Assembly (NCBI GenBank): GCA_947464955.1
Contig: CANHZI010000001.1
Span: forward strand, 12,206 to 76,205
Direction: 5' to 3'
Origin: Oxalobacteraceae bacterium
Lineage (GTDB): Bacteria > Pseudomonadota > Gammaproteobacteria > Burkholderiales > Burkholderiaceae_D
DNA: 64,000 bases
Part shown: piece after piece, positions 2,724-64,000 of the stretch
Layout: every line of letters begins with the position of its first letter
Position numbering within the stretch: position 1 is the stretch's first letter
The notes under the pieces: generated by a model
The model's database searches: none
What the model saw: only the letters and a program-made list of their open reading frames with translations
Told to the model about the DNA's origin: nothing
Made by a program: the position numbers and the translations under genes

Positions 2724-2735
2724 AACTATCGCCTG

Positions 2736-17927: not shown

Positions 17928-18494
17928 TCAAAACAATTCAATATCACCACTATCAAGATGCTGCTGATTTACCGTCTTTCGTAATAAGCTCTTAAGCTCG
18001 ATACTTTGTCGTTGCAGACGCTCTGTTATCTCGGACAAGACTCCAGCGATTTCCTCGTTGCCGCCGTCATGGGGTATGTCATTACCGACATCCAAAGTGG
18101 AGAGCAACTCGCGCAAACCAGCACTCCGCTGCACAGTGCGAGAGATCAATTGACTAGTCAAATCCTGGAACTGCAAACTGGTCACCGCTCGATTAATATG
18201 CAAGGCAATATCAGCCTGAATTTGCGCCAGCTTATCGACACTTTCTTGAGGCACTTTGCCTTCACTGATAATTTCGCGAATATGCTCTTCTTGAACGGTA
18301 ATTGAACTGTGCAAGTCAAGGAAACTCGCGCCAAGCTTTTCGATCGCTTCAGCTAACAAAAGCGTAGTCTGTACAAGATCTGTCTCGACCTCGACCAAAT
18401 GATCAACACCGTGGTCGGAAACGCCAGCCAGCAGTTCCTTTACCCGAGATCCCAACATCTGTTTGTTCGACATCTTTAGCATCCCATTCTGCAA
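17928..18494 (-). CDS. short CheZ-like protein (putative CheY-P phosphatase); otherwise hypothetical
   Basis: 188 aa all-helical ORF between motB and cheY2. It contains SLQFQDLTSQLISRT, which resembles the CheZ catalytic block AQDFQDLTGQVIKRM. It ends in an acidic-hydrophobic tail, LDSGDIELF. The start codon is uncertain because there are several in-frame Met codons. Confidence 0.5.
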   Translation of the reverse strand: MQNGMLKMSNKQMLGSRVKELLAGVSDHGVDHLVEVETDLVQTTLLLAEAIEKLGASFLDLHSSITVQEEHIREIISEGKVPQESVDKLAQIQADIALHINRAVTSLQFQDLTSQLISRTVQRSAGLRELLSTLDVGNDIPHDGGNEEIAGVLSEITERLQRQSIELKSLLRKTVNQQHLDSGDIELF

Positions 18495-18533: not shown

Positions 18534-19451
18534 TTACTTTTTTGGTTCAGTTATCACATCAACTTGCTTACCTACATCGATTTCACCACCATCTTGCGAA
18601 GCCGATTGTTCGGCTTTCTTATTCATCACAATAATGCTAATCCGGCGATTAATTGGGTTCAACGGATCCCCTTTATCAAACAACACGGACGAAGATAATC
18701 CCACAATACGCAACACCTTCGTTTCATCCATGCCACCGTAGATCAATTCTCTCCGAGACGCGTTGGCGCGATCGGCAGACAACTCCCAATTGCTATACCC
18801 TTTTTCGCCATGGCCATAAGGTGCGGCATCGGTATGACCTGACAAACTAATTTTGTTTGGCACTTCATTCAACGCCAATCCGATCTCATGCAGAATCTCT
18901 TTCGTATAAGGCTGCAAATCAGCATTACCTGAAGCAAACATAGGCCGATTTTTTTCGTCCACCATTTGAATACGTAGGCCCTCAGAAGTGATGTCTAACA
19001 ATAGCTGTTTCTTAAACTGCTTCAGTGTTGGACTTGCTTCGATTGCCGCCTCAATTTTTTCTTTAAGCCCCTTCAAACGTTCGGCATCAACTTTGGCCAA
19101 CGCTGCTTCTGCGGCTTGCAAGTTATAAGTTTTCTTTGGCGCTTCAATATCCCCCTTGCGTGTTTGCCCTTCACGCAAAGATAAATCTTTACCGCCACCT
19201 TTAATCACACTCGAGCTATCACCACTACCATCACCACCGGACATCGCCACCTTCAACGGAGTTTGAAAGTACTCTGCAATACCTTGTAAATTACCTTTTG
19301 CGGTTGAGCCTAGCAGCCACATCAACAAGAAGAATGCCATCATCGCTGTCACAAAGTCAGCATAAGCGATCTTCCATGCACCACCATGGTGACCGCCCGC
19401 ATGCTTCTTGATGCGTTTGACGATAATGGGTCTTAGCTCTTCGTTTGCCAT
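18534..19451 (-). CDS. motB: flagellar stator protein MotB
   Basis: 305 aa. Motifs: GGAWKIAYADFVTAMMAFFLLMWL and an OmpA-like C-domain (SGHTDA...NWELSADRANASRR). Confidence 0.95.
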   Translation of the reverse strand: MANEELRPIIVKRIKKHAGGHHGGAWKIAYADFVTAMMAFFLLMWLLGSTAKGNLQGIAEYFQTPLKVAMSGGDGSGDSSSVIKGGGKDLSLREGQTRKGDIEAPKKTYNLQAAEAALAKVDAERLKGLKEKIEAAIEASPTLKQFKKQLLLDITSEGLRIQMVDEKNRPMFASGNADLQPYTKEILHEIGLALNEVPNKISLSGHTDAAPYGHGEKGYSNWELSADRANASRRELIYGGMDETKVLRIVGLSSSVLFDKGDPLNPINRRISIIVMNKKAEQSASQDGGEIDVGKQVDVITEPKK

Positions 19452-19467
19452 AGTTCAATCACAAAGA

Positions 19468-20328
19468 CTATTTAGACTTCGATTGTTTAATATGCTCTTC
19501 TAGTTCAGAGAATGTCGGGCGCTCTGTCGAATACAAAACTTTGCGACCAAACTCAACTGACAAGGCTGGTGCATAGCCATTCAAGCTCGCCAACAAAGTC
19601 ACTTTAATACATTGAAATGTCTTGGACGACTCATCTAAATTTTGCTCCATCAAACTCGCCAACGGACCAACAAAACCATAAGCCAGCAAAATACCAAGGA
19701 AAGTACCAACCAAAGCATGGGCAATCAAAATCCCCAACTCTGCTGGCGGAATACCCACAGACTCCATGGTATGAACCACACCCATCACCGCCGCAACGAT
19801 ACCGAACGCTGGCAAACCATCACCTAATTTCGCGATAAAGTGGGCAGGTGCTGCACCTTCGTGGTGATGCGTCTCCAGCTCGTTATCCATCAGGTTTTCA
19901 ATTTGAAATGCGTCCATATTACCGGACACCATCAAACGCAGATAATCACCTAAGAATTCCATCAAATGATGATCCGAGACCACCAAAGTGTATTTACTAA
20001 AGAGCGGGCTTTCCTCAGGCTTTTCGATGTCTCCTTCGATCGACATCAAGCCTTCTTTCCGAATTTTTGTGAGGACATCAAACAACATTGTCATCAGCTC
20101 CATATACAAGGCTTTGCTGTATTTAGAACCTTTGAATACGCTAGGCAAAGCCTTCAATGAAGCTTTGAGAGTTTTAGCATTATTACCGACCAGCGAAGCA
20201 CCGACGGCAGCGCCACCAATCATGAGTAATTCGAGCGGCTGAAAAAGAACGGCGAGATGACCGCCTGACATGACGAAACCGCCGAAAACGGACCCGCAAA
20301 CAACGATATAGCCGACGATGACTAACAC
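19468..20328 (-). CDS. motA: flagellar stator protein MotA
   Basis: 286 aa with a GTG start 8 nt after the GAGGAG SD. It has 4 TM segments and the conserved IAHALVGTFLGILLAYGFVGPLA region. Confidence 0.95.
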   Translation of the reverse strand: MLVIVGYIVVCGSVFGGFVMSGGHLAVLFQPLELLMIGGAAVGASLVGNNAKTLKASLKALPSVFKGSKYSKALYMELMTMLFDVLTKIRKEGLMSIEGDIEKPEESPLFSKYTLVVSDHHLMEFLGDYLRLMVSGNMDAFQIENLMDNELETHHHEGAAPAHFIAKLGDGLPAFGIVAAVMGVVHTMESVGIPPAELGILIAHALVGTFLGILLAYGFVGPLASLMEQNLDESSKTFQCIKVTLLASLNGYAPALSVEFGRKVLYSTERPTFSELEEHIKQSKSK

Positions 20329-21864: not shown

Positions 21865-22182
21865 TTACGCGATTTCTTCCACATTTTGACCAGCCATCAA
21901 AATGGCCGCATGGGACTGAGCCAAACTGCGCTCTTTGTTATAATTCGTCAACATACAGAGGATAGAGCTATCTTCGAAGCGGAAGCGAGCCAACATCATG
22001 TTAGAGCCAGCCAACTTCAAGATTTGAGAGTTATTTAATCCTTCGATTAAATCTGCGATCTCTTTGCCGATGCCTAAGCGGAAAATTGCTGTTGCCTTGT
22101 CCGCACGGATCATTTGCTGCGCGAGCATCAAGTAACTCAAGTTTGCATCGCGAATTTCAGCCATCATATCATTTGGTGTCAT
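21865..22182 (-). CDS. flhD: flagellar master regulator subunit FlhD
   Basis: 105 aa. Motifs: EIRDANLSYLMLAQQMIRADKATAIFRLGI and LARFRF. The GGGAG SD lies 7 nt upstream. Confidence 0.95.
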   Translation of the reverse strand: MTPNDMMAEIRDANLSYLMLAQQMIRADKATAIFRLGIGKEIADLIEGLNNSQILKLAGSNMMLARFRFEDSSILCMLTNYNKERSLAQSHAAILMAGQNVEEIA

Positions 22183-22474: not shown

Positions 22475-22501
22475 TTAACGGCAGACTTTAGGAAAACTTT
22501 A
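22475..22501 (-). promoter_or_regulatory. sigma-28-type promoter motif P1 facing flhDC
   Basis: The minus strand reads TAAAGTTT-tcctaaagtct-GCCGTTAA. The -35 box matches 8/8, the spacer is 11 nt and the -10 box matches the enteric consensus 7/8. It shares CCGTTA with the flgM promoter in this window. Confidence 0.55.
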
Positions 22502-22552
22502 GGGTCCAAACAAAATATTTTTCAATTATTTTTAAGCTTGTTCGTAGGACTC

Positions 22553-22579
22553 TTAACGGTGCAATTTCAGAAAACTTGA
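22553..22579 (-). promoter_or_regulatory. sigma-28-type promoter motif P2 facing flhDC
   Basis: The minus strand reads TCAAGTTT-tctgaaattgc-ACCGTTAA. The -35 box matches 7/8, the spacer is 11 nt and the -10 box matches 6/8. Confidence 0.45.
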
Positions 22580-22601
22580 GTGTTTTTTTGAAAAAAATCA
22601 A

Positions 22602-22628
22602 AAAAGTTTGTTGGAAATTTGCCGAAAA
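22602..22628 (+). promoter_or_regulatory. sigma-28-type promoter motif P3 facing away from flhDC
   Basis: The plus strand reads AAAAGTTT-gttggaaattt-GCCGAAAA. The -35 box matches 7/8, the spacer is 11 nt and the -10 box matches 7/8. Confidence 0.45.
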
Positions 22629-51438: not shown

Positions 51439-52592
51439 TTTTTGATCTCCACAATTTTTCCAAAATTTGGACCAAACTTCTTCTGATACTCCGCCATCTG
51501 CTGCATACGCTCTTGCACGCGAGTTCGATCTTGTACCTCACCAGCTAATTGACCACAGGCAGCATCAATATCATCACCACGGGTCTTACGAACCGTAGTC
51601 ACAATTCCCGCATCCATCAAGATCTGCGCAAACACTTTGATGCGCGCGTTATTTGAACGCTTCAAGCCAGATTCGGGGAAAGGATTAAATGGAATTAAGT
51701 TGAACTTGCATGGCACGGTTTTGACCAAGTTCACCAATTCACGCGCATGTTCATCAGTGTCATTGACACCATCCAACATACAGTATTCGAAAGTAATGAA
51801 ATCACGCGGCGCGTAGTCCAAATAGCGACGGCAAGCGTCCATCAATTCATGCAGAGGATATTTCTTATTGAGTGGCACCAAACCATCACGCAAAGCATCG
51901 TTTGACGCGTGCAAAGATACCGCCAAAGCAACTGGGCATTCTTTCGACAGCTTATCAATCATGGGCACGACGCCACTGGTTGACAAGGTAACGCGACGGC
52001 GCGACAAACCATAGGCATTGTCGTCGAGCATCAGCTTCAATGCCGTCACTGTCGGCTCAAAATTAAGTAGCGGCTCCCCCATCCCCATCATCACCACATT
52101 CGTGATTTGACGTTCACCCTTAGGGCCAGGCTCAATACCTTTAGTACGACGCAACTCAAACTCAGCCATCCATAGCTGGCCGATAATTTCACCGACACTT
52201 AAGTTGCGATTAAATCCTTGTTTTCCGGTTGAACAAAAGCGGCAATTTACCGCGCAACCAGCCTGCGTCGAGACACACAAAGTGCCACGATTTTCTTCAG
52301 GAATAAAAACGGTTTCAACGGCATTGCCGTTACCAACATCAACCAACCACTTACGTGTGCCGTCAGTCGACGTATGATCACTGATAATGGCGGGTGCAGC
52401 GATGTGCGCACGTCCAGCCAACTTTTCGCGCAAAGATTTGGCGAGGTCAGTCATCTCATCAAAATTACTAGCGCCGAATTGGTGAATCCAGCGCTGTAAT
52501 TGCTTGGCACGAAACGGCTTCTCACCCAACTCCCCGCAATATGCGACCAGTTGAGCAGGATCAAAGTCCAACAAATTAGTGAGAGCCGTCAT
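51435..52592 (-). CDS. rlmN: 23S rRNA/tRNA A2503/A37 C2-methyltransferase RlmN (radical SAM)
   Basis: 385 aa. Motifs: [27 protein letters not shown] and C-terminal DIDAACGQL. Confidence 0.96.
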
Positions 52593-52663
52593 GTCAATTC
52601 TTCTTTCATGCCCAACCTAGCTTAGGTCAGGCATCGTTATTACCAAATCAGTTAATTCTCAGA

Positions 52664-53089
52664 TTAACGTGAGTACACGTTCAATGCTGGGAAGAAGTAA
52701 GCGATTTCAACTGCAGCTGTTTCAGCAGCATCAGAACCGTGAACCGCATTAGCATCGATAGATTCAGCGAAATCAGCGCGAATTGTGCCTTTTTCTGCTT
52801 TCTTCGGATCAGTTGCGCCCATCAAGTCACGATTTTTCAAAATCGCGCCTTCGCCTTCCAATACTTGTACAAATACTGGACCAGAAATCATGAAGTCGAC
52901 CAAATCTTTGAAGAATGGGCGAGCAGCGTGCACAGCGTAGAAGCCTTCTGCTTCAGCGCGGGACAATTGTGTCAAGCGAGCAGCAACAACTTTCAAGCCA
53001 GCGCCTTCAAAGCGGCTGACGATTTGACCGATAACATTTTTTGCAACTGCGTCAGGTTTAATAATAGATAATGTACGTTCGATAGCCAT
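52664..53089 (-). CDS. ndk: nucleoside diphosphate kinase
   Basis: 141 aa. Motifs: [12 protein letters not shown] and NAVHGSD, which carries the active-site His. Confidence 0.98.
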
Positions 53090-53338
53090 CTAAAAACTCC
53101 AATAAAAAGAAAGGGTTAAGACAAAAAACTCAAGAATTCATCTAACCTTAGATTTTACCATGAAACCCCTTCCTCTAGGGAACATGTCAATAATCATAAT
53201 AAATTAGCAGAAAAATTAAAATAAAAACATTAAAAATTAGAAATGCGCGTCGACTTGGATGCAATTCCACACCAATTTCATAGAGATTCACTAAAGCAAC
53301 TGGTAGACTTCGCCCATTCCTTTACGAGCAGCTTAACT

Positions 53339-54721
53339 ATGTCTAGCCCCGCCCTATTTTCGAATCTCCCACTCAATCCAAGTCTACTTGAGAGTCTTAC
53401 ATCGCTTGGTTACCTAGAAATGACAGCGATTCAAGCCGAAAGCATTCCTGTCATGCTTGAACAAAAAGACTTGATCGCTCAAGCAAAGACTGGCAGCGGC
53501 AAAACCGCGGCCTTCGGCATCGGCATCCTGAATAAGCTTAACCCCGCTTACTTCGCCACGCAGGCCTTAGTGATTTGCCCAACACGAGAATTGGCCGATC
53601 AAGTTTCTAATGAACTGAGACGCCTAGCGCGGGCGATTCCTAACATTAAAATTTTGACATTATGCGGTGGCACCCCCATGCGCCCGCAAATCGCCTCGCT
53701 CGAACATGGTGCACATATCGTGGTCGGCACTCCGGGGCGTTTACTCGACCACATTGGGCGCAATTCGATCCGACTTAACACCATCCAGACGCTTGTACTC
53801 GATGAAGCGGACCGTATGGTCGACATGGGCTTTTACGAAGACATTGTCGGTATTGTCGCCGCCTGTTCTCCACGACGACAAACACTACTGTTCTCAGCAA
53901 CCTATCCCGACGACATTCGTCAAGCGAGCCAAGGCTTCTTGCGCGACCCGGTGGAGATTAAGGTTGAAAGCCAGCATGCAGAACAACAAATCGAACAATA
54001 CTTTTTTGAAATTACTGCCGAAGAGCGCAATGCTGCTGTCGCCCGATTACTCTTACACTATCAGCCAAAATCGAGCATTGTTTTCTGCAACACGAAAATT
54101 CATTGTGATGAATTAGCTTTCGAATTACAGCAGCAAGGTATTACTGCACTTGCACTCCACGGTGACTTGGAGCAACGCGACCGCGACGAAATTCTGGTTT
54201 TGTTTGCCAATCAAAGTTGCACTGTCTTAGTGGCAACCGACGTGGCGGCGCGCGGCATCGACATTCAATCGCTTGGCGCCGTCATCAATGCCGACGTCTC
54301 CAAAGATACCGAAGTTCACATTCACCGCATCGGTAGAACTGGTAGAGCTGGCGAGCGTGGACTCGCACTCACACTAGCGACGCCAAATGAAAAGAAATGG
54401 GTACGCCTTATCGAAGAGTATCAAAAGCGCGAAGCCACTTGGAAAATGCTCGCTGAACTCGATGCGAATTCGGAACACCTGATCGCCCCCAACATTAGCA
54501 TTTGCATTTCTGGCGGCAAAAAGGACAAACTGCGCCCAGGCGATTTGCTCGGAGCGCTAACGGGCGATGTTGGCTTACGCAAGGATCAAGTCGGGAAAAT
54601 CAATGTATTTGAATTTAACAGCTATGTCGCGATTGAACGTAGTGTCGTTGATCACGCGCTCGACAAACTAAGTCATTGTAAAATCAAAGGGCGCCAATTC
54701 AAGGTGCGCGAAATCACTTAG
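53339..54721 (+). CDS. dbpA: ATP-dependent DEAD-box RNA helicase DbpA
   Basis: The start is taken at MSSPALFSNL (ATG at 53339); the ORF track starts at 53243. Motifs: AKTGSGKTAAF, DEAD, SAT, HRIGRTGRAG. The C-terminal DbpA RNA-binding domain is GKKDKLRPGDLLGALTG. Confidence 0.9.
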   Translation: MSSPALFSNLPLNPSLLESLTSLGYLEMTAIQAESIPVMLEQKDLIAQAKTGSGKTAAFGIGILNKLNPAYFATQALVICPTRELADQVSNELRRLARAIPNIKILTLCGGTPMRPQIASLEHGAHIVVGTPGRLLDHIGRNSIRLNTIQTLVLDEADRMVDMGFYEDIVGIVAACSPRRQTLLFSATYPDDIRQASQGFLRDPVEIKVESQHAEQQIEQYFFEITAEERNAAVARLLLHYQPKSSIVFCNTKIHCDELAFELQQQGITALALHGDLEQRDRDEILVLFANQSCTVLVATDVAARGIDIQSLGAVINADVSKDTEVHIHRIGRTGRAGERGLALTLATPNEKKWVRLIEEYQKREATWKMLAELDANSEHLIAPNISICISGGKKDKLRPGDLLGALTGDVGLRKDQVGKINVFEFNSYVAIERSVVDHALDKLSHCKIKGRQFKVREIT

Positions 54722-54785
54722 CGCACTGTATTGCAGCCACATAAAAACTCACACCCCCGAATAGAACAAACAACACAAACAAAAC

Positions 54786-55418
54786 ATGATTCGAATATTG
54801 ATAGCAGACGACCACACCATCATGCGCGAGGGACTCAAGCGCATTTTGGATGGCATTGAAGATATCCAAGTCATCGGTGAAGCGATTGACGGCCACGACA
54901 CGATCACCAAAGTGCGATCTGAGACTTTTGATGTACTGCTGCTTGATCTCTCTATGCCAGGACGTAGTGGCGTCGACCTCATACATCAAATCAAAGATGA
55001 GTTTCCCAAATTACCGATTTTGATACTGACGATGCATGAGGAAGAACAATATGCCGTCAGAGCGATTCGTGCAGGAGCCAATGGCTACCTCACCAAAGAG
55101 AGCGCTGGAACACAACTGGTCACTGCGCTACGTAAAGTCGCGTCTGGGCGGCCGTATATCAGCATGGAGGTCGCTGAACAACTAGCAATGTCAGCGATGC
55201 CAGCGACCAGCGACGCCTCCCACACCTCACTTTCAGACCGCGAGTTTGAAGTCTTTTGCCATCTCGCAAAAGGGAAATCGATTACCGAGATCGGTGACAT
55301 GCTGCACCTTAGCGTCAAGACAGTCAGCACACATAAAACAAGAATCATGCAAAAAATGGGATTGAACTCAATCTCTGATCTAGTGCAATACGCGATCGCC
55401 CATCACCTGCTAAGCTAA
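54786..55418 (+). CDS. NarL/FixJ-family response regulator (receiver + LuxR-type HTH)
   Basis: 210 aa. Motifs: ILIADDHTIMREGL, LLDLSMPGRSG, LTMHEE, YLTKES. The HTH is LSDREFEVFCHLAKGKSITEIGDMLHLSVKTVSTHKTRIMQKMG. Confidence 0.9.
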   Translation: MIRILIADDHTIMREGLKRILDGIEDIQVIGEAIDGHDTITKVRSETFDVLLLDLSMPGRSGVDLIHQIKDEFPKLPILILTMHEEEQYAVRAIRAGANGYLTKESAGTQLVTALRKVASGRPYISMEVAEQLAMSAMPATSDASHTSLSDREFEVFCHLAKGKSITEIGDMLHLSVKTVSTHKTRIMQKMGLNSISDLVQYAIAHHLLS

Positions 55419-55455
55419 ATCTAAGTTGAAAACTAAGAAATAGTCTAAAGAGCAA

Positions 55456-55478
55456 CCTACAACGCGATGCGTTGTAGG
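55456..55478. repeat. perfect 10-3-10 inverted repeat after the NarL-type regulator gene
   Basis: CCTACAACGC-gat-GCGTTGTAGG overlaps a second perfect palindrome, AGGAATATTCCT (55476-55487). There is no U-tract, so it is either a non-canonical terminator or an operator. Confidence 0.4.
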
Positions 55479-55529
55479 AATATTCCTAATACCCCCACTG
55501 CAAACTCCCACAGCTCAAATCAGCGAACC

Positions 55530-55543
55530 CTGATTTAAATCAA
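55530..55543. promoter_or_regulatory. FNR/Dnr-type box candidate upstream of the lone receiver gene
   Basis: CTGAT-ttaa-ATCAA compared with the consensus TTGAT-N4-ATCAA (9/10). Its centre is 71 bp upstream of the ATG at 55608. An FNR-family regulator with an E..SR recognition helix is encoded 0.5 kb downstream. Confidence 0.35.
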
Positions 55544-55607
55544 GCACGCGACTGATCATAATGGACACATGCAAACAAATGCTGTGTTCAATTAAATCAA
55601 ACGCGCC

Positions 55608-55982
55608 ATGAACCTGTTTATCGTCGAAGATTCGCTGCTCATCCAAAACCGCCTGGTGCGGTTTATTGAAGAACTGCCTGATGTCAGCATCGTCGGTATC
55701 TCCGCAGAAATCGCAGGAGCCTACGACAAGATCGTCAGCACACATGCAGACGCCATGATTTTGGACATACAGCTGAGCGACGGCAACAGCTTGGGATTAC
55801 TCAAAAAAATAAAATCCTCGATCCCAGAAGTACGGGTTGTTGTACTTACCAATCATTCCAACGAAGCAAATCGCATGCAAGCCTTACGGGCTGGCGCTGA
55901 CAGCTTCTTAGACAAATCAACCGATTTCGAACAGATACCGAATATTTTGCAGCGCTGGCAGGCACATGGACCAGCGCATTAA
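55608..55982 (+). CDS. stand-alone receiver-domain response regulator
   Basis: 124 aa. Motifs: LFIVEDSLLIQ, ILDIQLSDGNS, VLTNH, FLDKS. It has no output domain. Confidence 0.85.
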   Translation: MNLFIVEDSLLIQNRLVRFIEELPDVSIVGISAEIAGAYDKIVSTHADAMILDIQLSDGNSLGLLKKIKSSIPEVRVVVLTNHSNEANRMQALRAGADSFLDKSTDFEQIPNILQRWQAHGPAH

Positions 55983-56047
55983 GCACCCGATTTTCTAGCT
56001 TTTAAATTGTTTTTAGTGTTTCAAATTCATCTTACAGAGGAAACATC

Positions 56048-56914
56048 ATGTCGAATATATCTATGCTCTCCCAGCCAAAACGCAATGCAGATGTCGTTTC
56101 TCACACCGATGCTCCATGGCGCCAACAGGGAAGTCTCTGGTCCAATCTTCGTCAAGTATGTGATTTACTCGCCATGCCAGCACCAGCAACAGCAGATGAA
56201 GAAGACACCTTATTCCAACACGTACGTTACAAAGCAGGACATCGCATCCATCGTATCGGTCAAGCCTTTGATACCTTGTACATCGTCAATTCTGGTTTTG
56301 TCAAAACCATCCATATTGATGAATTCGGCAATGAACAAGTACTCAGTTTCCCAATGAAAGGCGACATCCTCGGCATCGACGGCATTCACAAGCAACATCA
56401 CGCCTCAGAAGCGATTGCTCTGACCGACTGTGACGTTATCTTGGTTCCCTACAAAACATTTGCAGCATTAGGTCGCATTCATGTCGAACTCGAACAAGCG
56501 ATGTTCAGTGTAATGAGCCGCGAAATCGTTCGCGAGCAAATGATGATCAGTATGCTGAGCGCACTCAGTGCGGAAGCGAAAGTTGCTCGCTTCTTGACCA
56601 ACTTAGGTGAACGTTTCAGTCAAATGGGTTACTCTGGCCGTAGCTTTAATTTACGCATGACGCGCCAAGAAATCGGCAGCTATTTAGGTCTGACCTTGGA
56701 AACCGTTAGCCGTACTCTTTCAGCATTGAATGAACTCGGCATGATTTCAGTCGAACAACGCGAAATTAATTTACTCGATACTGCTGCTCTAAAGACCTTG
56801 CGTCGTTTGCCACCTGCAAAAGCAAAAATCAAAGTGGCAGAAAAAGTCACCGCTCTTGTCAATAAAAACCTGCTCCCACAATGGAATCCTGAACTCAGTA
56901 CAGCGATGAATTAA
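56048..56914 (+). CDS. Crp/Fnr-family transcription regulator, FNR-class recognition helix but no Fe-S cysteine cluster (Dnr/NnrR-like)
   Basis: 288 aa. It has a cNMP-binding-like beta-roll (YKAGHRIHRIGQAFDTLYIVNSGFVKT). The HTH is MTRQEIGSYLGLTLETVSRTLSAL, with the E--SR motif. Only two Cys residues occur in the whole protein. It has N- and C-terminal extensions. Confidence 0.8.
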   Translation: MSNISMLSQPKRNADVVSHTDAPWRQQGSLWSNLRQVCDLLAMPAPATADEEDTLFQHVRYKAGHRIHRIGQAFDTLYIVNSGFVKTIHIDEFGNEQVLSFPMKGDILGIDGIHKQHHASEAIALTDCDVILVPYKTFAALGRIHVELEQAMFSVMSREIVREQMMISMLSALSAEAKVARFLTNLGERFSQMGYSGRSFNLRMTRQEIGSYLGLTLETVSRTLSALNELGMISVEQREINLLDTAALKTLRRLPPAKAKIKVAEKVTALVNKNLLPQWNPELSTAMN

Positions 56915-56947
56915 GCAATGCCTTGACAACCTTATCGGGAGAACAAA

Positions 56948-57787
56948 ATGACTTACAAGAGCATACTGGTTCACGTCGAAGATTCCAAACATGCATCGCA
57001 ACGCACGGCCGTTGCGCATGAATTGGCAAAACTATTTGATTCGCATTTAATCGGATTAGCAGTTACTGGAATCTCGCGCTACGTTTTTGAAGGCAGTGAC
57101 TTTAGCATTAGCGATCCCAATATTGGCTTGCACCTGAATGATCTACACAAACGTGCAGAGCGCGCCGTCGAACGATTCAATTACGACTGCAACAGTTTGG
57201 GTTGCAATCAGTTTGAAGCGAACATCGCGAACGATGAAGCGAACGGCGGCCTCGGTTTGCGCGCCAGATATTGCGATCTGATCGTGATTGGCCAATCAAA
57301 TCCACATGAACCGTCGCCATCAGTGATGTCCGACTTTCCTGAATTTATGGTCGTCAACGCAGGTCGCCCGACTCTAATCGTGCCTTATTCGGGCGAACAT
57401 AACAATATTAGTCAACGAGTCTTGATCGCATGGGATGGAAGTCGCGAAGCCGCTCGTGCCGTTACAGACTCAATTCCGGTTTTGAAGAAAGCCAGTTCTG
57501 TACAAATCTTGATTCTCAATCCAGGCGCTGATGCCGAAGCCCATGGCGACGAGCCAGGTGCGGACATCGCACTGTATTTGGCTAGACATGGTATCAAAGT
57601 TGAAGTCTGTGTTCGCTTCAGCAAAAACGACATTGGTGATGCCATTCTTCAAATCGCCAAAGAACTCGGCGCGAGCCTGCTGGTGATGGGCGCCTACGGA
57701 CATTCACGTTTCCGCGAAATGGTAATGGGTGGCGTGACCCGTCATATCCTTGAAAATATGAATTTGCCCGTACTGATGTCCCACTGA
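56948..57787 (+). CDS. tandem universal stress protein (UspE-like)
   Basis: 279 aa with two Usp domains. The second ends LLVMGAYGHSRFREMVMGGVTRHIL. Confidence 0.85.
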   Translation: MTYKSILVHVEDSKHASQRTAVAHELAKLFDSHLIGLAVTGISRYVFEGSDFSISDPNIGLHLNDLHKRAERAVERFNYDCNSLGCNQFEANIANDEANGGLGLRARYCDLIVIGQSNPHEPSPSVMSDFPEFMVVNAGRPTLIVPYSGEHNNISQRVLIAWDGSREAARAVTDSIPVLKKASSVQILILNPGADAEAHGDEPGADIALYLARHGIKVEVCVRFSKNDIGDAILQIAKELGASLLVMGAYGHSRFREMVMGGVTRHILENMNLPVLMSH

Positions 57788-57830
57788 ACAAAGGACTTTA
57801 GCACCTGCCTCGCTCGAGGCTAGTCGATAC

Positions 57831-57862
57831 ACTGGTACTTTGCAAAAGTACCAGTTTGCGTT
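57831..57862 (+). terminator. stem-loop terminator after the usp gene
   Basis: A perfect 11-bp stem ACTGGTACTTT-gca-AAAGTACCAGT followed by TTGCGTT, which is a weak U-tract. Confidence 0.55.
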
Positions 57863-57990
57863 AACGAGGTAAAAGTCTAAGCCGAACTCAGATATTAGGC
57901 GTGACAAAAAAAGCACACAGGCCGATAACTGACGCAGCGCCGAATCACAAAAATAGGTAGAATCAGCCATCCTCATTTTGCCCATTGCTT

Positions 57991-59937
57991 ATGCTTCACC
58001 ATACTTCAATTACCAGCCGTGACTTTAGGCACTTAGGATTAATCAGCGCATTACTTTTCGCGGTATCCCTAGTGTTATGGCTAAACTATGATTCTTTTGC
58101 GAGCTTCAAAATCAGCAACGCGCTAGCTTTTCATACCGCGCTCGAAACGACCACCATCGTTTTATTCATTTCCGTTTTTATCGTCTGCTGGAATGCATTC
58201 GGAGAGCGCCGCAACCTCAGCAGCTTGATACTTGCGGTGTCGTTTTTGTGCGCTGCCATCCTCGGATTTTTTCATGCCTTATCGTTCCAAGGCATGCCAG
58301 GTTTCTTACATGCTGTGGACATGCACAAATCACTGAGTTTCTGGCTCATATCGAGGCTGATTATCACCCTCACCCTGCTTGGCCTTGCACTGCGCCCGAG
58401 CGACAAGTTAGTCAGCAATATTCGCTCGAATATTAGTGTCGGACTTGGTCTTGCAGCTACTGTCGCTTTCACCAATTTGATTTTTATGTATCCTGAAATT
58501 TTGCCCACCACTTATCTTGAACAAAGTGGGCAAACGCGTTTCAAGATTGTGTGCGAGATCATACTGGTCTTACTCAATATTTGCAGTGCCTACTTTTTCT
58601 ATCGTCAAATCAAAACAGTAAATCCTGATCGGCTCAATGATCTACTCGAAATCAATCGTGGCTATTTATGCTTCGCCAGTTTGATGTTGGCTGCTTCAGA
58701 AGTGTATTTTTCTTTGTATCGTTTTGCTGATGAAGTCTTTGTTTTGATCGGGCACAGTTTCCAACTGATGGCAGCAATCGCTATCTATCGAGGAATGGTG
58801 GCGATTAGCATCCATGCGCCATATGCGTACTTGATCAAGAACACGAGAACATTGCAAGAAACGGCAAACGAACTACTCATCAACAAGCAAAGACTGGTTG
58901 GCGTCATCGAAACAGCGATGGATGGTATTTTGACGATTGATGACCAGTACAAAATTGTTTTAGTGAACCCTGCAGCGGCCAAAGTTTTCGGATATGAAGT
59001 GGAACAACTGATTGGACAATCGATCGATGTGGTTATCCCCATACGCCATCGTCATGTTCACTCAAAGCACGTTGAAAATTTTGGGCATCATGGCACTACC
59101 CGCCGCCAAATGGGCACCAGCTTTGAAGATTTTTATGTCACCGGCTTACACGCAAACGGTAGCGAGTTTCCGATCGAAGCTTCGATTTCGAGTCTAGTCG
59201 AGAATGGGCGACGCTTTTATACCGTTATTTTCCGCGATATCAACGAGCGCAAAATCGCTAAAGAAAAACTAGCGCAATATCATACCCAGCTCAGCCAACT
59301 ATCTTCTGCCCTACAAAGCATACGCGAGGAAGAACGCAAACATATCGCGCGCGAATTGCATGATGACTTAGGTCAGCTTTTGGCGGCTTTACGGATGGAC
59401 TTATCCTTGCTGCAGCGCGACCACTCAATGACTGAGAAATCAAGAATGACGCTCAGTAGCATGGATCAATTGCTCCTAACATCGATCACTACTTTACGTC
59501 GGATCGCGACAGATTTGCGTCCGCGTGCCTTGGATGAAGGTGGTTTGTTCTTTGCATTACAAACTTTACAGAAAGAGTTCTCGCAACGTCACGGCGTGCA
59601 TTGCGATTTGATCGCTGATGAAGAACAACTGATACTCAATGATGAAAAAAGCACTGCAATCTTCCGCATTGTTCAAGAGTCACTAACCAACGTCGCTCGC
59701 CATGCAAAAGCGAACCACGTCAAAATCAGTTTCGAACGTGACGATGAGAGTCTTTATCTTCGCATTAAGGATGACGGTCGCGGCATCGAAGAAGGAGCGA
59801 TGAATAAAACGCGCTCGTTTGGTCTAGTCGGTATGCGCGAACGGATCAAAGCACTGAATGGCAGCTTCCAGCTTGAATCGGCAGTTGGCAAAGGCACACA
59901 GATTGATGTCAAAATACCAGTGAACGATGCAAGCTAA
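57991..59937 (+). CDS. membrane sensor histidine kinase: multi-TM sensor domain + PAS + HisKA_3 + HATPase
   Basis: About 648 aa from the ATG at 57991; a TTG at 57985 is also possible. It has about 7-8 TM helices and a PAS domain (VIETAMDGILTIDDQYKIVLVNPAAAKVFGY...FRDINERK). The H-box is ARELHDDLGQLLAAL, followed by HATPase motifs (QESLTNVARHA, DDGRGI, GLVGMRERI). Confidence 0.88.
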   Translation: MLHHTSITSRDFRHLGLISALLFAVSLVLWLNYDSFASFKISNALAFHTALETTTIVLFISVFIVCWNAFGERRNLSSLILAVSFLCAAILGFFHALSFQGMPGFLHAVDMHKSLSFWLISRLIITLTLLGLALRPSDKLVSNIRSNISVGLGLAATVAFTNLIFMYPEILPTTYLEQSGQTRFKIVCEIILVLLNICSAYFFYRQIKTVNPDRLNDLLEINRGYLCFASLMLAASEVYFSLYRFADEVFVLIGHSFQLMAAIAIYRGMVAISIHAPYAYLIKNTRTLQETANELLINKQRLVGVIETAMDGILTIDDQYKIVLVNPAAAKVFGYEVEQLIGQSIDVVIPIRHRHVHSKHVENFGHHGTTRRQMGTSFEDFYVTGLHANGSEFPIEASISSLVENGRRFYTVIFRDINERKIAKEKLAQYHTQLSQLSSALQSIREEERKHIARELHDDLGQLLAALRMDLSLLQRDHSMTEKSRMTLSSMDQLLLTSITTLRRIATDLRPRALDEGGLFFALQTLQKEFSQRHGVHCDLIADEEQLILNDEKSTAIFRIVQESLTNVARHAKANHVKISFERDDESLYLRIKDDGRGIEEGAMNKTRSFGLVGMRERIKALNGSFQLESAVGKGTQIDVKIPVNDAS

Positions 59938-59982
59938 ATAATAATTGCTCAAGCGGATTCAATTAAACACAAACATTATGAT

Positions 59983-60009
59983 TAAAATTTGTGCAGATCG
60001 CGCGAAAAA
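59983..60009 (+). promoter_or_regulatory. weak sigma-28-like promoter motif upstream of the mini rod-like gene
   Basis: TAAAATTT-gtgcagatcgc-GCGAAAAA. The -35 box matches 7/8, the spacer is 11 nt and the -10 box matches only 5/8. It lies 58 nt upstream of the ATG at 60067. Confidence 0.3.
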
Positions 60010-60066
60010 GGACTATGCTGTTTAATAGAAAAAGCGAAAAACCTAGGCTTCAAGGAGTATTCCATT

Positions 60067-60411
60067 ATGGCAATTTCCGCGCTCAACTCCGGCATTTCAG
60101 CGATGCGTGCGTTTGAAACAGCATTAGATAGCACGGGGCACAACATCGCCAATGCCAATACCAACAACTTCAAACCACAAACTGCCAGCTTCCAAGAAGG
60201 CGTGAATGGTGGAGTAATTGTCAATATTAGCCAAGCCAGCAAAACACTGTCAGCCCAAAGTACTGAACAATCAACTAGTCAGCCGAGTGAAACCGATTTT
60301 GGCACTGAAATTACCAATTCACTTCAATACAAAATTGGCTTTCAAATGGCAGCAAAACTGGTCAAAACCAGCGATGAAATTCTCGATACTTTAATCAATA
60401 TGAAGAAATAA
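60067..60411 (+). CDS. miniature flagellar axial (rod/hook)-family protein consisting essentially of the conserved N- and C-terminal segments
   Basis: The ATG at 60067 lies 9 nt after an AGGAG SD. 114 aa. The N-terminus ALNSGISAMRAFETALDSTGHNIANANTNNFKPQTASFQE matches the flg_bb_rod signature. The C-terminus FGTEITNSLQYKIGFQMAAKLVKTSDEILDTLINM matches the axial-protein C-terminal heptad region. Confidence 0.7.
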   Translation: MAISALNSGISAMRAFETALDSTGHNIANANTNNFKPQTASFQEGVNGGVIVNISQASKTLSAQSTEQSTSQPSETDFGTEITNSLQYKIGFQMAAKLVKTSDEILDTLINMKK

Positions 60412-61182
60412 TTAGCCGCGTGCTGGCGTAATGCAGAGGAATTCCGGCATCGACTGCATGTCGTAGAAAACCAAACCTAGTAGTGCCAGCCCAATAAGAA
60501 CCAGCCCAACAATGGCACGGATCACGTGCGTCACAGCCAATGTCTTGATCTGCTGCGACACAAGCTGCGTGACCAATAGATGTGGCAAAGCAGCGATGCC
60601 AAAAATTACCATCAACACCGCACCCGACCACGCCTGACCAGATAAAATCGCAAATGGCGCCACAGCATAAGTCAAGCCACACGGTAAAGCGCCCCAGGCC
60701 AAACCAATTAAGAATGGATGCTGACTTCCCTGTCGCATCGATGGCATTAACGCTTGCGAAACCGAACTAAAGACTTGATTCCCAGACCACGGCCACGGCA
60801 AGCTCACCCCAATTAACCTTAAGCCAAGCAAAAGCAGGAGTATATTGGCGAAGAAAAAAAGATAAGGGCTTGCCCAATTCATCCACGTCCAAGACATAGT
60901 GGCCGCGCCGAGCCCACCGAAAGCAGCGCCAATTAAACCGTATGTTGTGATGCGCCCAGCATGCAAGAAAACGAGATAAGCAGTCTGTTTGCTAGGGTTT
61001 GCGCTGCTATGAGTATGAATAGGGATAATGCGCTGCGCTGATGTTTGCTCGCCAGTTTTTTCTGATGAAAGGCTTGGCAACTTCGCTAACAGATGAGAAA
61101 TCCCACCGCACATGCCAACGCAATGAAAGCCGCCAATCAGACCGGCAGAGATCACTGCAAACAGCATGGGCCAAGTTAGCAT
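60412..61182 (-). CDS. DsbD_2/TauE-like integral membrane protein commonly linked to cbb3 oxidase maturation clusters
   Basis: 256 aa and multi-TM. It has the N-terminal GGFHCVGMCGG motif. Its stop codon abuts the stop of the convergent gene at 60411. Confidence 0.7.
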   Translation of the reverse strand: MLTWPMLFAVISAGLIGGFHCVGMCGGISHLLAKLPSLSSEKTGEQTSAQRIIPIHTHSSANPSKQTAYLVFLHAGRITTYGLIGAAFGGLGAATMSWTWMNWASPYLFFFANILLLLLGLRLIGVSLPWPWSGNQVFSSVSQALMPSMRQGSQHPFLIGLAWGALPCGLTYAVAPFAILSGQAWSGAVLMVIFGIAALPHLLVTQLVSQQIKTLAVTHVIRAIVGLVLIGLALLGLVFYDMQSMPEFLCITPARG

Positions 61183-61197
61183 GAAGGCTTTCTCGGA

Positions 61198-62601
61198 TTA
61201 AATCAGCTTTGAATACTTCGCTTCAGTTTGGCGTGACAAATATTGGTCAAACACCATACTAAATGCCCGCACAAACATCCGCCCCTTAGAATTCACGCGC
61301 ACAGTATTGTCGTCAATACTAATTAATTCTTCTTCGGTGTAGAGCTGGAGGCGATCTAACTCTGATGCGAAATAATCTTTAAAGTTGATTTGGTGTTTAG
61401 CTTCGATATCGGCCATATTGAGCGTGCTACTGCACATCAAATCCATAATGATTTCACGACGCATCAGGTCGTCGGCGTTGAGGTCAAAACCTTTTTCCAC
61501 TGGCAAAACACCTTGATCTAAAGCGCCATAGTATTCATCCAAGGTTCTGAAATTTTGCCCATATGAAGCGCCAATTTTTCCGATAGATGACAATCCTAAG
61601 GCAATCAAATCACAATCGGCACGCGTGGTGTAACCTTGAAAATTACGATGCAGGCTCTTGTCTTTTACGGCCAATGCAAGGCTATCATCAGGTTTGGCGA
61701 AATGATCGAGTCCGATATAAACATAGCCAGCATCAAGCAAACGGCGAATCGACATCAGAAAAATTTGTAGGCGTTGTTCAGCTGAGGGCAAATCAATTTC
61801 ATTGATGCGACGTTGTGGCTTAAAGCGAGTGGGTAAATGTGCGTAATTGTACAAAGCGATGCGCGCAGGTGAAAGCTCTATCACTTGATCCAAAGTCTTG
61901 GAAAAACTATCGAGGTCTTGCTTGGGCAAGCCATAAATCAAATCAAAATTAATCGACTGAAATCCAGCTGCCCTGCTCTCTTGAATGCATTTTTCAACCA
62001 TCTCATACGGCTGAATACGATGCACTGCGATCTGCACTTGCTCATTAAAATCTTGCACCCCAAGGCTGGTTCGATTGAAACCAAGTTCTGCAAGCAGATT
62101 GAGATATTCCGTTGTGACTGTACGCGGGTCGATCTCGATTGAGATCTCTGCATCAGCAGAAAAAGCAAAATGTGAACGCAACAACAGCATGAGTTGCCGC
62201 ATTTCGGCTTCACTTAAGAAGGTTGGCGTGCCGCCACCTAGATGTAACTGTGAGATCGTTTCTGGTGTAGTCAAATGCTGCTTAATGAGCTGCAGCTCTT
62301 TTTCCAGATAACTTAAATACGTTGCGGACTTACTTCTATCTTTCGTAATCACCTTATTGCACGCACAGTAATAACAAAGCGAAGCACAAAACGGGATATG
62401 GATGTAGAGAGAAAGTGGTGGCCGATTAGGATTGCTACTACGCTGCTGCAAATACCGAATATAGGATTGCGCGGTAAAATCCGCGTGAAAACGATCCGCA
62501 GTTGGGTAAGACGTATAACGCGGACCCAAAGAATCAAAACGACGAATCAGCTCTTCTGAAATTTCTAAATTATCACTACGCGTTACGACTCTTGTATCCA
62601 T
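61198..62601 (-). CDS. hemN: oxygen-independent coproporphyrinogen III oxidase (radical SAM)
   Basis: 467 aa. Motifs: GPRYTSYPTADRF, YIHIPFCASLCYYCACN, GGGTPTF. Confidence 0.95.
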   Translation of the reverse strand: MDTRVVTRSDNLEISEELIRRFDSLGPRYTSYPTADRFHADFTAQSYIRYLQQRSSNPNRPPLSLYIHIPFCASLCYYCACNKVITKDRSKSATYLSYLEKELQLIKQHLTTPETISQLHLGGGTPTFLSEAEMRQLMLLLRSHFAFSADAEISIEIDPRTVTTEYLNLLAELGFNRTSLGVQDFNEQVQIAVHRIQPYEMVEKCIQESRAAGFQSINFDLIYGLPKQDLDSFSKTLDQVIELSPARIALYNYAHLPTRFKPQRRINEIDLPSAEQRLQIFLMSIRRLLDAGYVYIGLDHFAKPDDSLALAVKDKSLHRNFQGYTTRADCDLIALGLSSIGKIGASYGQNFRTLDEYYGALDQGVLPVEKGFDLNADDLMRREIIMDLMCSSTLNMADIEAKHQINFKDYFASELDRLQLYTEEELISIDDNTVRVNSKGRMFVRAFSMVFDQYLSRQTEAKYSKLI

Positions 62602-62605
62602 GAAA

Positions 62606-62899
62606 TTACCGTATTTTTTGTAAGAGAAAAGTCGTAATCCAGCTGGAGAGGCAGCCTAAGGCCCAGAACACCAAAAAGCCTATGGTGTACGCCCCCAGCA
62701 TGTGTACCTGCACTTTTTCATCGAGGATGATCAATTCCATGGGATCAACCAAGCTAAAGAAAATACCTGTAGCCACACACGCCATCAAGAAACCTGGCCA
62801 CAGTACCACCATCAGTTTCATGCCGAGCGAAAATCTTTCTTCTTTTTTGATGCGATTTTCCAAACCTGTCTCCTCTTTTTGTACTAACTTTTGAAGCAC
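62606..62899 (-). CDS. small two-TM membrane protein, hypothetical
   Basis: Up to 97 aa from the GTG at 62899, or 71 aa from the ATG at 62821. It has two hydrophobic helices. It lies between the FixH-family gene and hemN. The start is unresolved. Confidence 0.45.
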   Translation of the reverse strand: MLQKLVQKEETGLENRIKKEERFSLGMKLMVVLWPGFLMACVATGIFFSLVDPMELIILDEKVQVHMLGAYTIGFLVFWALGCLSSWITTFLLQKIR

Positions 62900-62920
62900 T
62901 CACCCGAGGATTACGTGCTC

Positions 62921-63493
62921 TTAGTTTGCCACAGCCAAAACTAAATTTCTTTGCAGTGGATCATACCAATCCCCTGTCAGACGCCAATCATTTGTCTCTA
63001 GTTTGACATGCAACAATTTTACTGCATTTGTATCGAGCGCATTCTTCCCTTTCAGCGCTTCACGCAGGTCGGCTTGATACTTACCTCCACCGACATGTTT
63101 CATCGGAACACGGCGTATAACTTCTTCGACCGAACCACTCTGCGCCCCTGAACTTGCAATACTTAATTGCACAGTCTCAGGCAAATCGGCACGTGACTGC
63201 AGATTTAACTGTATGGTTTGCGATTGCAAGTCGAATTGCATCTTTGCGTTCAAGTGCAGTTCACGCGCTTTTGCATCGCGCTGCAAATTGGTGTTGATCA
63301 TCAAACCTTGCTTATAATAATCTTTAGCAACGACTTGATCAGCGCCTCGAAACGCAATAAATCCTGTAATGAGGCTCGCGCAAACGACGATCAGTGGGCC
63401 ACCAACGACCAACAGCAACCATGGCTCGTTATACCATGCGTCTTTTTTTACTGCTTGGGTAAGGATTGCTGAGTTCATAATCATTCCAATCAT
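62921..63493 (-). CDS. FixH-family protein (cbb3 oxidase maturation cluster)
   Basis: 190 aa. The N-terminus is WYNEPWLLLVVGGPLIVVCASLITGFIAF and includes a TM segment. A beta-rich periplasmic domain follows. It overlaps the ccoG stop (ATGA). Confidence 0.8.
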   Translation of the reverse strand: MIGMIMNSAILTQAVKKDAWYNEPWLLLVVGGPLIVVCASLITGFIAFRGADQVVAKDYYKQGLMINTNLQRDAKARELHLNAKMQFDLQSQTIQLNLQSRADLPETVQLSIASSGAQSGSVEEVIRRVPMKHVGGGKYQADLREALKGKNALDTNAVKLLHVKLETNDWRLTGDWYDPLQRNLVLAVAN

Positions 63494-64000
63494 CTAGGTA
63501 CAATAAACACGGCTTTTTCGGTCACCGTGACTTTCGCTTTTTCTTTGTCAGTAATCGTAAATTTAATCCGATTCGATCCAGTACTTGCTGATCCTGCTGG
63601 CACTCTTACCCGCACAGGAAAAGCTTTCGAGCTAGCAGATGGTATTGCCACGCTAGTCTCATTCACAATTTCAGCGCCGACTAAGCCTTTCACTGAAATT
63701 ATGTACTCACGCGCAGATTCTTGTGTATTCATGATCTGCAGGCGATAGACGTTCTCTACGCCCCCCGTCTCAGTAATCTTAGGCATTGCACGATCACGTA
63801 ACACATCGACCTTGAGTGGCACACGATAAGCCAAGGAAACGGCCGCCACCAAAATAATGAGACACAAAATGCCGGTGTAGACCAATGTACGAAGGCGGAA
63901 CACACGTTTCCACATGGCCTCGTTATTCATCTTACGTTTGAGCGCATGTTCTGTGGTGTAACGGACAAGGCCCCGTTCGTAGCCCATTTTATCCATGACC
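63490..64000 (-). CDS. ccoG: cytochrome c oxidase accessory protein CcoG/FixG, C-terminal part (gene continues beyond the window end)
   Basis: The C-terminal region reads ...GYERGLVRYTTEHAL..., then a TM segment and an Ig-like domain (VENVYRLQIMNTQES). The open frame reaches position 64000. Confidence 0.8.
   Translation of the reverse strand, partial: VMDKMGYERGLVRYTTEHALKRKMNNEAMWKRVFRLRTLVYTGILCLIILVAAVSLAYRVPLKVDVLRDRAMPKITETGGVENVYRLQIMNTQESAREYIISVKGLVGAEIVNETSVAIPSASSKAFPVRVRVPAGSASTGSNRIKFTITDKEKAKVTVTEKAVFIVPR

Follow-up and report, generated by a model that had tools for sequence, protein, structure and literature searches.

What does a 114-residue protein with the two ends of a flagellar rod or hook subunit do when its gene lies in a low-oxygen gene neighbourhood, far from the flagellar genes? 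Genes for core rod proteins normally sit in flg operons and, to our knowledge, the rod/hook parts list is regarded as complete, with recent cryo-electron microscopy structures accounting for every subunit. The question is raised by a 64,000-nucleotide stretch of contig CANHZI010000001.1 from an Oxalobacteraceae bacterium (the window, hereafter), in which a short open reading frame (ORF) at 60067-60411 encodes such a protein, here called the mini protein. We find that it is a minimal, functional member of the flagellar axial-protein superfamily: a FlgE/FlgG-type subunit that keeps the D0 segments and the first hairpin, is without D1/D2 and has a FlgC-like fold. Its identity is secure and its class is widespread; the low-oxygen link may be positional only, and the function, which may be to control or modify flagellum building, is one that we infer.

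Architecture of the mini axial protein

The first-pass annotation of this DNA, made from the sequence alone, had credited the ORF with a good Shine-Dalgarno site, and this held: AGGAG lies 9 nt before the ATG at 60067, the stop codon TAA is at 60409-60411, and the orthologues share the start. A longer TTG-initiated ORF (140 residues) is disfavoured, every orthologue beginning at the methionine equivalent to ATG-60067. The features of the gene are the following.

60053-60057, + strand: Shine-Dalgarno sequence AGGAG (sequence reading)
60067-60411, + strand: coding sequence of the mini axial protein (FlgE/G-like, FlgC-fold), 114 residues (ORF, Pfam, orthologues, and the ratio of nonsynonymous to synonymous substitution rates, dN/dS)
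60070-60150, + strand: N-terminal D0 helix (ND0), residues 2-28 (AlphaFold2 helix; Flg_bb_rod match)
60178-60234, + strand: conserved beta-hairpin FQEGVNGGVIVNISQ, residues 38-56 (AlphaFold2 strands; conservation)
60235-60297, + strand: Ser/Thr/Gln-rich variable linker, residues 57-77, predicted disordered (model confidence; orthologue variation)
60298-60405, + strand: C-terminal D0 helix (CD0), residues 78-113 (AlphaFold2 helix; Flg_bbr_C match; family-profile alignment)

Homology to axial proteins, first proposed from the two termini, proved well founded. The window protein matched both Pfam families above their gathering cutoffs, PF00460 (Flg_bb_rod) at residues 6-36 with 26.6 bits (cutoff 20.7) and PF06429 (Flg_bbr_C) at residues 80-112 with 32 bits (cutoff 23). 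The N-terminal axial motif ANN[LI]AN..T.G[FY] is present, with N26, A28 and N29 invariant among 74 relatives, and an S-x-T-D-[LF]-x-x-E entry motif stands immediately before the C-terminal D0 helix. When the family profile was compared with the PDB, FlgG (5.6e-23) and FlgE (1e-19) were each matched as two terminal stretches and FlgC (1.6e-13) as a single collinear stretch, residues 4-106 against 6-126.

An AlphaFold2 model built from a 74-sequence alignment had a mean predicted local distance difference test score (pLDDT) of 79.5 and a predicted template-modelling score (pTM) of 0.66. It consists of a helix (residues 2-28), two strands (38-44 and 50-56) and a second helix (78-113), the linker being of low confidence (pLDDT below 50 at residues 60-68), and the predicted D0 coiled-coil hairpin superposes on rod subunits at template-modelling (TM) scores of 0.77-0.81. 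In Foldseek searches of the PDB the best matches were whole FlgC chains (8Z5S_g and 7BIN_V/W; TMq 0.81, TMt 0.72), followed by other proximal-rod chains including 7BIN_Q, which is FlgB. The matches in 7CG0 are assigned only as proximal-rod chains, with no individual identity, and the bigger chains of distal-rod and hook complexes superpose in part only.

The initial description of the product as essentially D0-only, with a linker of about 40 residues, has to be revised. Residues 38-56 form a conserved hairpin (F42, E44, G48, G49, V50, V52 and I54 are its conserved residues) that is homologous to the post-ND0 segment of FlgE, only about residues 57-75 are variable and of low complexity, and the fold as a whole is that of FlgC. 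After ND0 the window protein reads GGVIVNISQ and a FlgE from Comamonadaceae GGVVVNISQ; over the full hairpin segment FQEGVNGGVIVNISQ that FlgE has EFAEQAAGGVVVNISQQFT, and the family profile also aligns over the FlgG segment matching the hairpin. The body found between the termini in full-length subunits (D1, and in FlgE also D2) is absent, and ~20 variable residues separate the hairpin from CD0, so that in the model the D1/D2 body is replaced by a ~20-residue linker predicted to be disordered. Pfam and NCBIfam scans of the window protein found no extra domain or motif pointing to another partner.

The mini protein thus resembles two kinds of known subunit. With FlgC it shares the ND0 helix/beta-hairpin/CD0 helix architecture and the size class, but compared with FlgC of Salmonella (7CG0, 7BIN) and Vibrio (8Z5S) it is 20 residues shorter and only 16-22% identical, a disordered Ser/Thr/Gln linker takes the place of the structured connection, the gene lies outside a flgBC operon, and its scores fall short of the FlgC equivalog models. 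That it is smaller than FlgB and FlgC, as the first reading had it, is correct: it has 114 residues, the solved FlgC chains 134-137 and the FlgB chains 135-138. FlgE and FlgG give the best sequence matches for both of its termini and have in common with it the CD0 entry S-N/T-V/T-D-L-x-x-E, the post-ND0 segment and a Phe at the gate-recognition position; they differ in length (260 residues for FlgG and at least 400 for FlgE, against ~114), and the mini gene is encoded away from flagellar genes.

Could the gene be a canonical flgC (or flgB) that has moved? The FlgC fold match and the FlgC label given to some orthologues by the pipelines of the Joint Genome Institute (JGI) would suit such a relocation, which we nevertheless judge very improbable and reject on the equivalog scores and the FlgG/FlgE-like termini, these being far better matched by FlgG and FlgE than by FlgC or FlgB. 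None of the NCBIfam equivalogs for FlgB, FlgC, FlgE, FlgF and FlgG was reached, the top score being 57.9 bits against a cutoff of 350. The FlgE/FlgG models gave at best 57-58 bits (cutoffs 350-469), the subfamily model TIGR03506 gave 38 bits (70.25), and the FlgB models TIGR01396 and NF005280 gave 25.6 (59.05) and 26.3 bits (106); for FlgC, NF009275 scored 20.3 bits (170) and TIGR01395 had no match to the window protein. Moreover flgA, flgM and flgN stand at the left edge of the window, and flgBC normally follow divergently beside these three genes. Among the 74 relatives, an NCBIfam scan likewise returned only generic FlgE/F/G/K/C/B models and no specific family model, and the database names of the mini protein and its relatives are generic or contradictory FlgC, FlgE and FlgG labels. 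With no equivalog cutoff approached and inconsistent labels, the thought that this might be a known, named rod component of the lineage was not borne out.

Conservation and selection

A word-indexed search retrieved 11 proteins (107-161 residues, 59-94% identity), one of them from the complete genome of Undibacterium cyanobacteriorum. A genome profile scan, dominated by ordinary FlgG, FlgE and FlgK, added versions of 107-110 residues (47-50% identity) from four further Undibacterium species and, beyond that genus, gave a match in one deltaproteobacterial metagenome-assembled genome (MAG). The orthologues have 107-117 residues and 36-94% identity; their helices and central hairpin are conserved, and the linker differs in length and sequence. 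In all 13 of the 13 loci compared the gene is intact, with the same start and the same length class, and the three pairs for which dS was not fully saturated gave dN/dS values of 0.083, 0.063 and 0.052 (Nei-Gojobori). The mini gene is therefore real, conserved and under purifying selection, and its host has it, as a paralogue, on top of the canonical rod and hook genes. It also diverges faster than its neighbours. In L010 (L-numbers denote individual loci or contigs compared with the window) the mini protein is 47% identical, while of the proteins encoded nearby the kinase reaches 60%, HemN 72% and the NarL-type response regulator 87%, and in the fully syntenic locus L102 it is only 36% identical.

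These data bear on whether the ORF is a chance ORF or a decaying hook or rod remnant, the latter kept in view by the first-pass annotation. A short gene that ends an operon-like block and has no flagellar neighbours might look like one; given the good Shine-Dalgarno site, the hundreds of homologues described below, the intact orthologues and dN/dS of about 0.05-0.08, we reject that idea as scarcely credible.

A wider set of mini axial proteins

Run with HMMER in filter-only mode against 1.84 billion cluster representatives, an Undibacterium profile gave 163 matches at E <=1e-10. Among the best 150 matches, about 109 have 94-130 residues and are aligned over their whole length, 117 residues being the commonest size, and a search with the 74-sequence alignment found 526 proteins at E <=1e-8. 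Beyond the window clade the named sources are Desulfobacterales and Desulfuromonadaceae MAGs, and the Desulfobacterota-type proteins bear the NCBI name 'flagellar basal body rod C-terminal domain-containing protein'. On large contigs their genes each stand alone behind a spacer of 325-600 bp, among unrelated neighbours, and Pfam analysis of 129 flanking ORFs at 76 further loci found no recurrent flagellar family. Signalling genes abound in contexts from lineages other than the window's, L090 and L091 having HDOD, PilZ and response regulators and L101 GGDEF-EAL. There are thus hundreds of look-alikes of ~117 residues, mostly in Desulfobacterota, which lie outside flagellar clusters in all contexts examined.

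At 7 of ~87 loci a full-length cyclic di-GMP (c-di-GMP) riboswitch of the c-di-GMP-I class (RF01051, 77-81 bits) precedes the mini gene by 85-330 nt and shares its strand.

L095, 7829-7916: c-di-GMP-I riboswitch, same strand as the mini gene
L137, 363-451: c-di-GMP-I riboswitch, same strand
L146, 1072-1169: c-di-GMP-I riboswitch, same strand
L150, 1296-1393: c-di-GMP-I riboswitch, same strand
L151, 453-550: c-di-GMP-I riboswitch, same strand
L153, 1294-1391: c-di-GMP-I riboswitch, same strand
L161, 1171-1255: c-di-GMP-I riboswitch, same strand

The mini proteins encoded behind these riboswitches have 113-117 residues, come from four Desulfobacterota lineages and are 42-61% identical. Fourteen loci negative by regular-expression search were negative with Rfam as well, and the literature searched contains no report of an association between this riboswitch and a mini gene. 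RNA folding gave no decision between ON and OFF; the L150 group alone shows an alternative GGCGG...CCGCC-UUUU hairpin, which hints at an ON switch. In L162 a cobalamin riboswitch (2059-2227, 65 bits), ~200 nt downstream of the mini gene and on its strand, presumably serves the next gene and has no bearing on the mini gene.

The Desulfobacterota-type proteins align end to end with the Undibacterium type (hhalign 99.5%, E = 3e-23, 111 columns), have the same architecture and length, and are likewise stand-alone and outside flagellar clusters. They differ in that their identity to the window clade is only 28-43% and that some are preceded by c-di-GMP-I riboswitches, which the window gene is not. 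Neighbour-joining trees of mini and full-length axial proteins were built in two ways, from the termini only and from hidden Markov model match columns without linker columns 57-72, the latter with 100 bootstraps. In these the window's group is a mini-only split of 31 representative clusters (50% identity) from Undibacterium genomes and related metagenome contigs, and a single origin of all mini proteins was neither supported nor firmly rejected. As the trees do not unite the two types, FlgE/G-type subunits may have been truncated independently in different phyla, and with a common origin unsupported we appeal to the riboswitches by analogy only, where conditional expression is concerned.

Genomic setting

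The mini gene lies between five genes on its own strand and a convergent block, assigned by Pfam and by synteny.

54786-59937, + strand: upstream syntenic block of five genes, as listed next
54786-55418, + strand: NarL-type response regulator
55608-55982, + strand: single-domain response regulator
56048-56914, + strand: Crp/Fnr regulator
56948-57787, + strand: tandem-type Usp
57985-59937, + strand: MASE3-PAS-HisKA_3 kinase
60412-63996, - strand: convergent block of DsbD_2 membrane protein, HemN, a 97-residue protein, FixH and the C-terminus of CcoG

The Pfam assignments agree with the original description of a PAS kinase in front and a DsbD_2-hemN-FixH-ccoG string abutting the stop codon, where the DsbD_2 gene (60412-61182, - strand) ends; in related genomes ccoPQON come next after ccoG. 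The order response regulator, response regulator, Fnr, Usp, MASE3/PAS kinase, mini gene and convergent DsbD_2-hemN-fixH-ccoG is preserved across at least 10 related lineages: U. cyanobacteriorum (L001), the metagenomic loci L002, L003 and L006-L008, four other Undibacterium species (L010-L013), and L097, L098, L099 and L102. The spacer between kinase and mini gene is 69-161 bp in the syntenic loci, and in L097, from which hemN is absent, the mini gene still stands directly behind the kinase. The low-oxygen neighbourhood noted at first pass is thus real and syntenic in Undibacterium-like genomes, but it is lineage-specific and was lost in L100 and L101. We regard the association as conserved synteny of one lineage, which suggests co-regulation and does not prove a functional link.

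Two observations concern the neighbours. Within the same chromosomal region (ndk ... ppiD), L100:7334-12350 holds a DEAD-box helicase gene, a 119-residue ORF, a short Usp gene and, beside it, a retained mini axial gene, and this locus is a natural "deletion" that parts the mini gene from its usual neighbours. The 97-residue predicted membrane protein encoded between hemN and fixH (62606-62899, - strand) has no Pfam match; it is conserved in all syntenic loci (56-86% identity, 85-97 residues) and hence is likely an uncharacterised accessory protein of the cbb3 oxidase.

Flagellar and chemotaxis genes occupy positions 244 to ~22182 of the window. After flgA, flgM (1071-1385) and flgN come a motAB pair, fliA, a MinD/ParA-like ATPase gene, flhF, flhA and flhB, and then an HDOD protein gene, cheZ, cheY, cheB, cheD, cheR, cheW, cheA, a second motAB and flhDC. 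From these genes, fliA included, the host is flagellated and encodes sigma-28; it is an Undibacterium-like flagellated bacterium. The flagellar gene nearest to the mini gene is flhD, which ends at 22182, 37.9 kb away, in agreement with the earlier placement outside flg and fli operons and ~38 kb from flagellar genes. The two motA/motB stator pairs are separate, one beside fliA (1947-3476, - strand) and one beside the che operon (18534-20328, - strand). The HDOD-domain protein between flhB and cheZ has 404 residues (9810-11024, - strand), and a 188-residue ORF without a Pfam match lies between a CheY-like gene and motB (17928-18494, - strand).

The upstream region

Two features precede the mini gene.

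59938-60066, + strand: intergenic region between kinase gene and mini gene, 129 bp (terminator scan)
59983-60009, + strand: weak sigma-28-like motif TAAAATTT-N11-GCGAAAAA, 84 nt before the ATG, a candidate only (consensus scan)

The intergenic region contains no terminator-like hairpin and no sigma-70-like promoter. Given the lack of a terminator after the kinase gene, the mini gene could be co-transcribed with it. An alignment of this region over eight species showed almost no conservation apart from a -10 element resembling TCCGGTATAAGC, which occurs in the more distant Undibacterium group. In that group (L002, L010-L013) a -10-like box, TCCGGTATAAGC / TCCGCTATAATC, lies ~40-60 nt before the mini-gene ATG with no recognisable -35; neither the window nor its closest relatives have the element, so that promoters are built differently from one subclade to another.

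The sigma-28 promoter type sought upstream was TAAAGTTT-N11-GCCGATAA, and the best sites of the window gave the consensus TAAAGTTT-N11-GCCG[AT][AT]AA. Window sites of this kind lie upstream of flgM at 1001, upstream of flhD and at 22602. Among the relatives, L001 and L006 have sites with two mismatches at -141, overlapping the kinase stop codon, and L099 has a weaker match with three mismatches at -74. These sequence matches make FliA control of the mini gene possible in the nearest relatives. Elsewhere in the window, flhD (21865-22182, - strand) has upstream a perfect sigma-28-type site, TAAAGTTT-N11-GCCGTTAA, on the minus strand at 22501-22475 with zero mismatches, and the region 22475-22628 holds two more near-consensus sites, at 22579 (- strand) and 22602 (+ strand). 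Their positions suggest FliA feedback on flhDC or, alternatively, a divergent FliA-dependent transcript.

Export features and possible function

In the two-signal model, early substrates of the flagellum's type III secretion system (fT3SS) carry an N-terminal hydrophobic signal and a gate-recognition motif, F-x-x-x-hydrophobic, at least 19-24 residues after that signal (PMC8983047). The mini protein has small residues of hydrophobic character within positions 2-6. Among mini proteins the extreme N-terminus is hydrophobic at I3 in 80% and at L6 in 95% of family members, and position 42, which aligns with FlgG F41 and FlgE F39, is hydrophobic in 91%; the window protein has F42-QEG-V46, ~36 residues after I3 to L6. 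Evans et al. are said to have defined the gate-recognition motif likewise in 2013. The mini protein, moreover, keeps exactly those parts that form the inner axial tube.

We tentatively favor, at somewhat less than an even chance, the reading that the mini protein is exported as an early flagellar substrate, that its role is conditional and modulating, and that its expression is linked to the kinase block. The protein would be recognised by the flagellar type III export gate as early rod/hook-class substrates are, be secreted into the growing rod-hook channel and insert its D0 coiled coil in the axial lattice. There it would act as a conditional modulator of rod/hook assembly or export and not as a bulk structural component, possibly as a competitor at the export gate, a cap, a terminator or a subunit for local rod-hook remodelling. 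The absence of D1/D2 contacts makes a modulating role more plausible than a bulk structural one. Expression in the window lineage would be tied to the upstream MASE3-PAS kinase/Fnr/Usp block and a micro-oxic signal, perhaps with FliA-dependent input as well in the closest relatives. A conditional role fits the non-flagellar location, the fast divergence, the place behind a sensor kinase and the riboswitch-gated look-alikes. FlgM and FliK, small or unfolded secreted regulators exported by the fT3SS, offer a functional analogy only, in that export through the flagellar apparatus serves regulation and not structure; they have no sequence or fold relation to the mini protein, which unlike them carries genuine lattice-forming D0 segments.

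Several findings weigh against this reading. Position 46, the +4 position of the strict F-x-x-x-hydrophobic motif, is hydrophobic in only 24% of relatives. As to expression, the sigma-28 motif reported at first pass does stand at 59983-60009, but it is weak, with three mismatches to the window consensus, and recurs only in the nearest relatives; nine other clade loci are without such a site, its position differs where it is present, and shuffling of the upstream regions yields a match at <=4 mismatches in 5-16% of cases, the value being about 11% for the 220-nt region of the window gene. Searches in front of the window gene and its orthologues found neither an Fnr box (TTGAT-N4-ATCAA) nor a sigma-54 site, and Rfam gave no match at E <=1 in window positions 52000-64000, hence no RF01051 aptamer. 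L100 keeps the mini gene without the two-component/Fnr block and the cbb3 cluster, and in L101 the gene is in an unrelated context; with the kinase/cbb3 linkage lost in these two loci, the synteny may reflect history and not function. In the trees the window group joins the Desulfobacterota type in 7 of 100 bootstraps. Finally, a plain structural role would agree just as well with the FlgC-like fold.

That last point leads to the proposal that the mini protein has a constitutive structural function as an accessory, whether as one more FlgB/FlgC-like layer or as an adaptor of the rod or the rod-hook junction, and is present in every flagellum, its gene merely happening to lie off the flg operon. 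We hold this, the main rival, to be unlikely, though it deserves serious thought: the whole predicted fold is that of FlgC (TM 0.81), selection is strongly purifying, the host is flagellated, and the window, L001 and L006 each have a sigma-28-like site in front of the gene. Such an accessory sits poorly with a gene that, like its look-alikes, is never beside flagellar genes (129 ORFs at 76 loci, and the larger contexts), with divergence faster than that of the neighbours (47% against 60-87% identity, and 36% in L102), which is unusual for a subunit of a tight lattice, with termini like those of distal-type FlgG/FlgE and not of FlgB/FlgC, and with riboswitch-gated expression in the analogous proteins.

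The degenerate export motif and the place of the gene raise another alternative, in which the protein is not exported at all: a cytoplasmic regulator that occupies the early-substrate docking sites of FlhB/FlhA or binds the termini of axial proteins, or else a protein with a non-flagellar role in low-oxygen signalling. The gene's fixed place straight behind that of the sensor kinase, across a short spacer that lacks a terminator, would agree with this, as would the signalling-rich contexts of L090, L091 and L101 and a gate-docking position at which Phe/Leu is conserved while the remaining motif is degenerate. We consider it improbable, for the conserved parts are the builders of the axial lattice (both D0 helices and the hairpin), the hydrophobic extreme N-terminus for opening the export gate is conserved, and no additional domain or motif for another partner is present.

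A broader form of the exported-modulator reading is that mini axial proteins are a new class of signal-gated "dummy subunits" that regulate flagellar assembly, an idea we advance as speculative and rather doubtful. Gating would be by low oxygen through the kinase/Fnr block here and by c-di-GMP riboswitches in Desulfobacterota; the subunits would be exported as hook proteins are and then cap, terminate or weaken the rod-hook, or they would jam the export gate. If true, this would amount to a post-transcriptional stop or remodelling of flagellum construction under sessile or micro-oxic conditions.

Significance

The literature searched contains no description of a class of mini axial proteins. 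What is new is a set of conserved, selected and widely distributed FlgE/G-like proteins reduced to the lattice-forming core, whose genes are always encoded off flagellar clusters and, in some lineages, behind c-di-GMP riboswitches. Should these be minor structural paralogues only, the gain would be a modest one in annotation, the names FlgC, FlgE and FlgG being inappropriate for them. If mini proteins become part of the axial structure or get into the export gate, there would be a new control point at which second-messenger or oxygen signalling acts on flagellar assembly, and these proteins might serve as natural probes of how D0-only subunits behave in the lattice.

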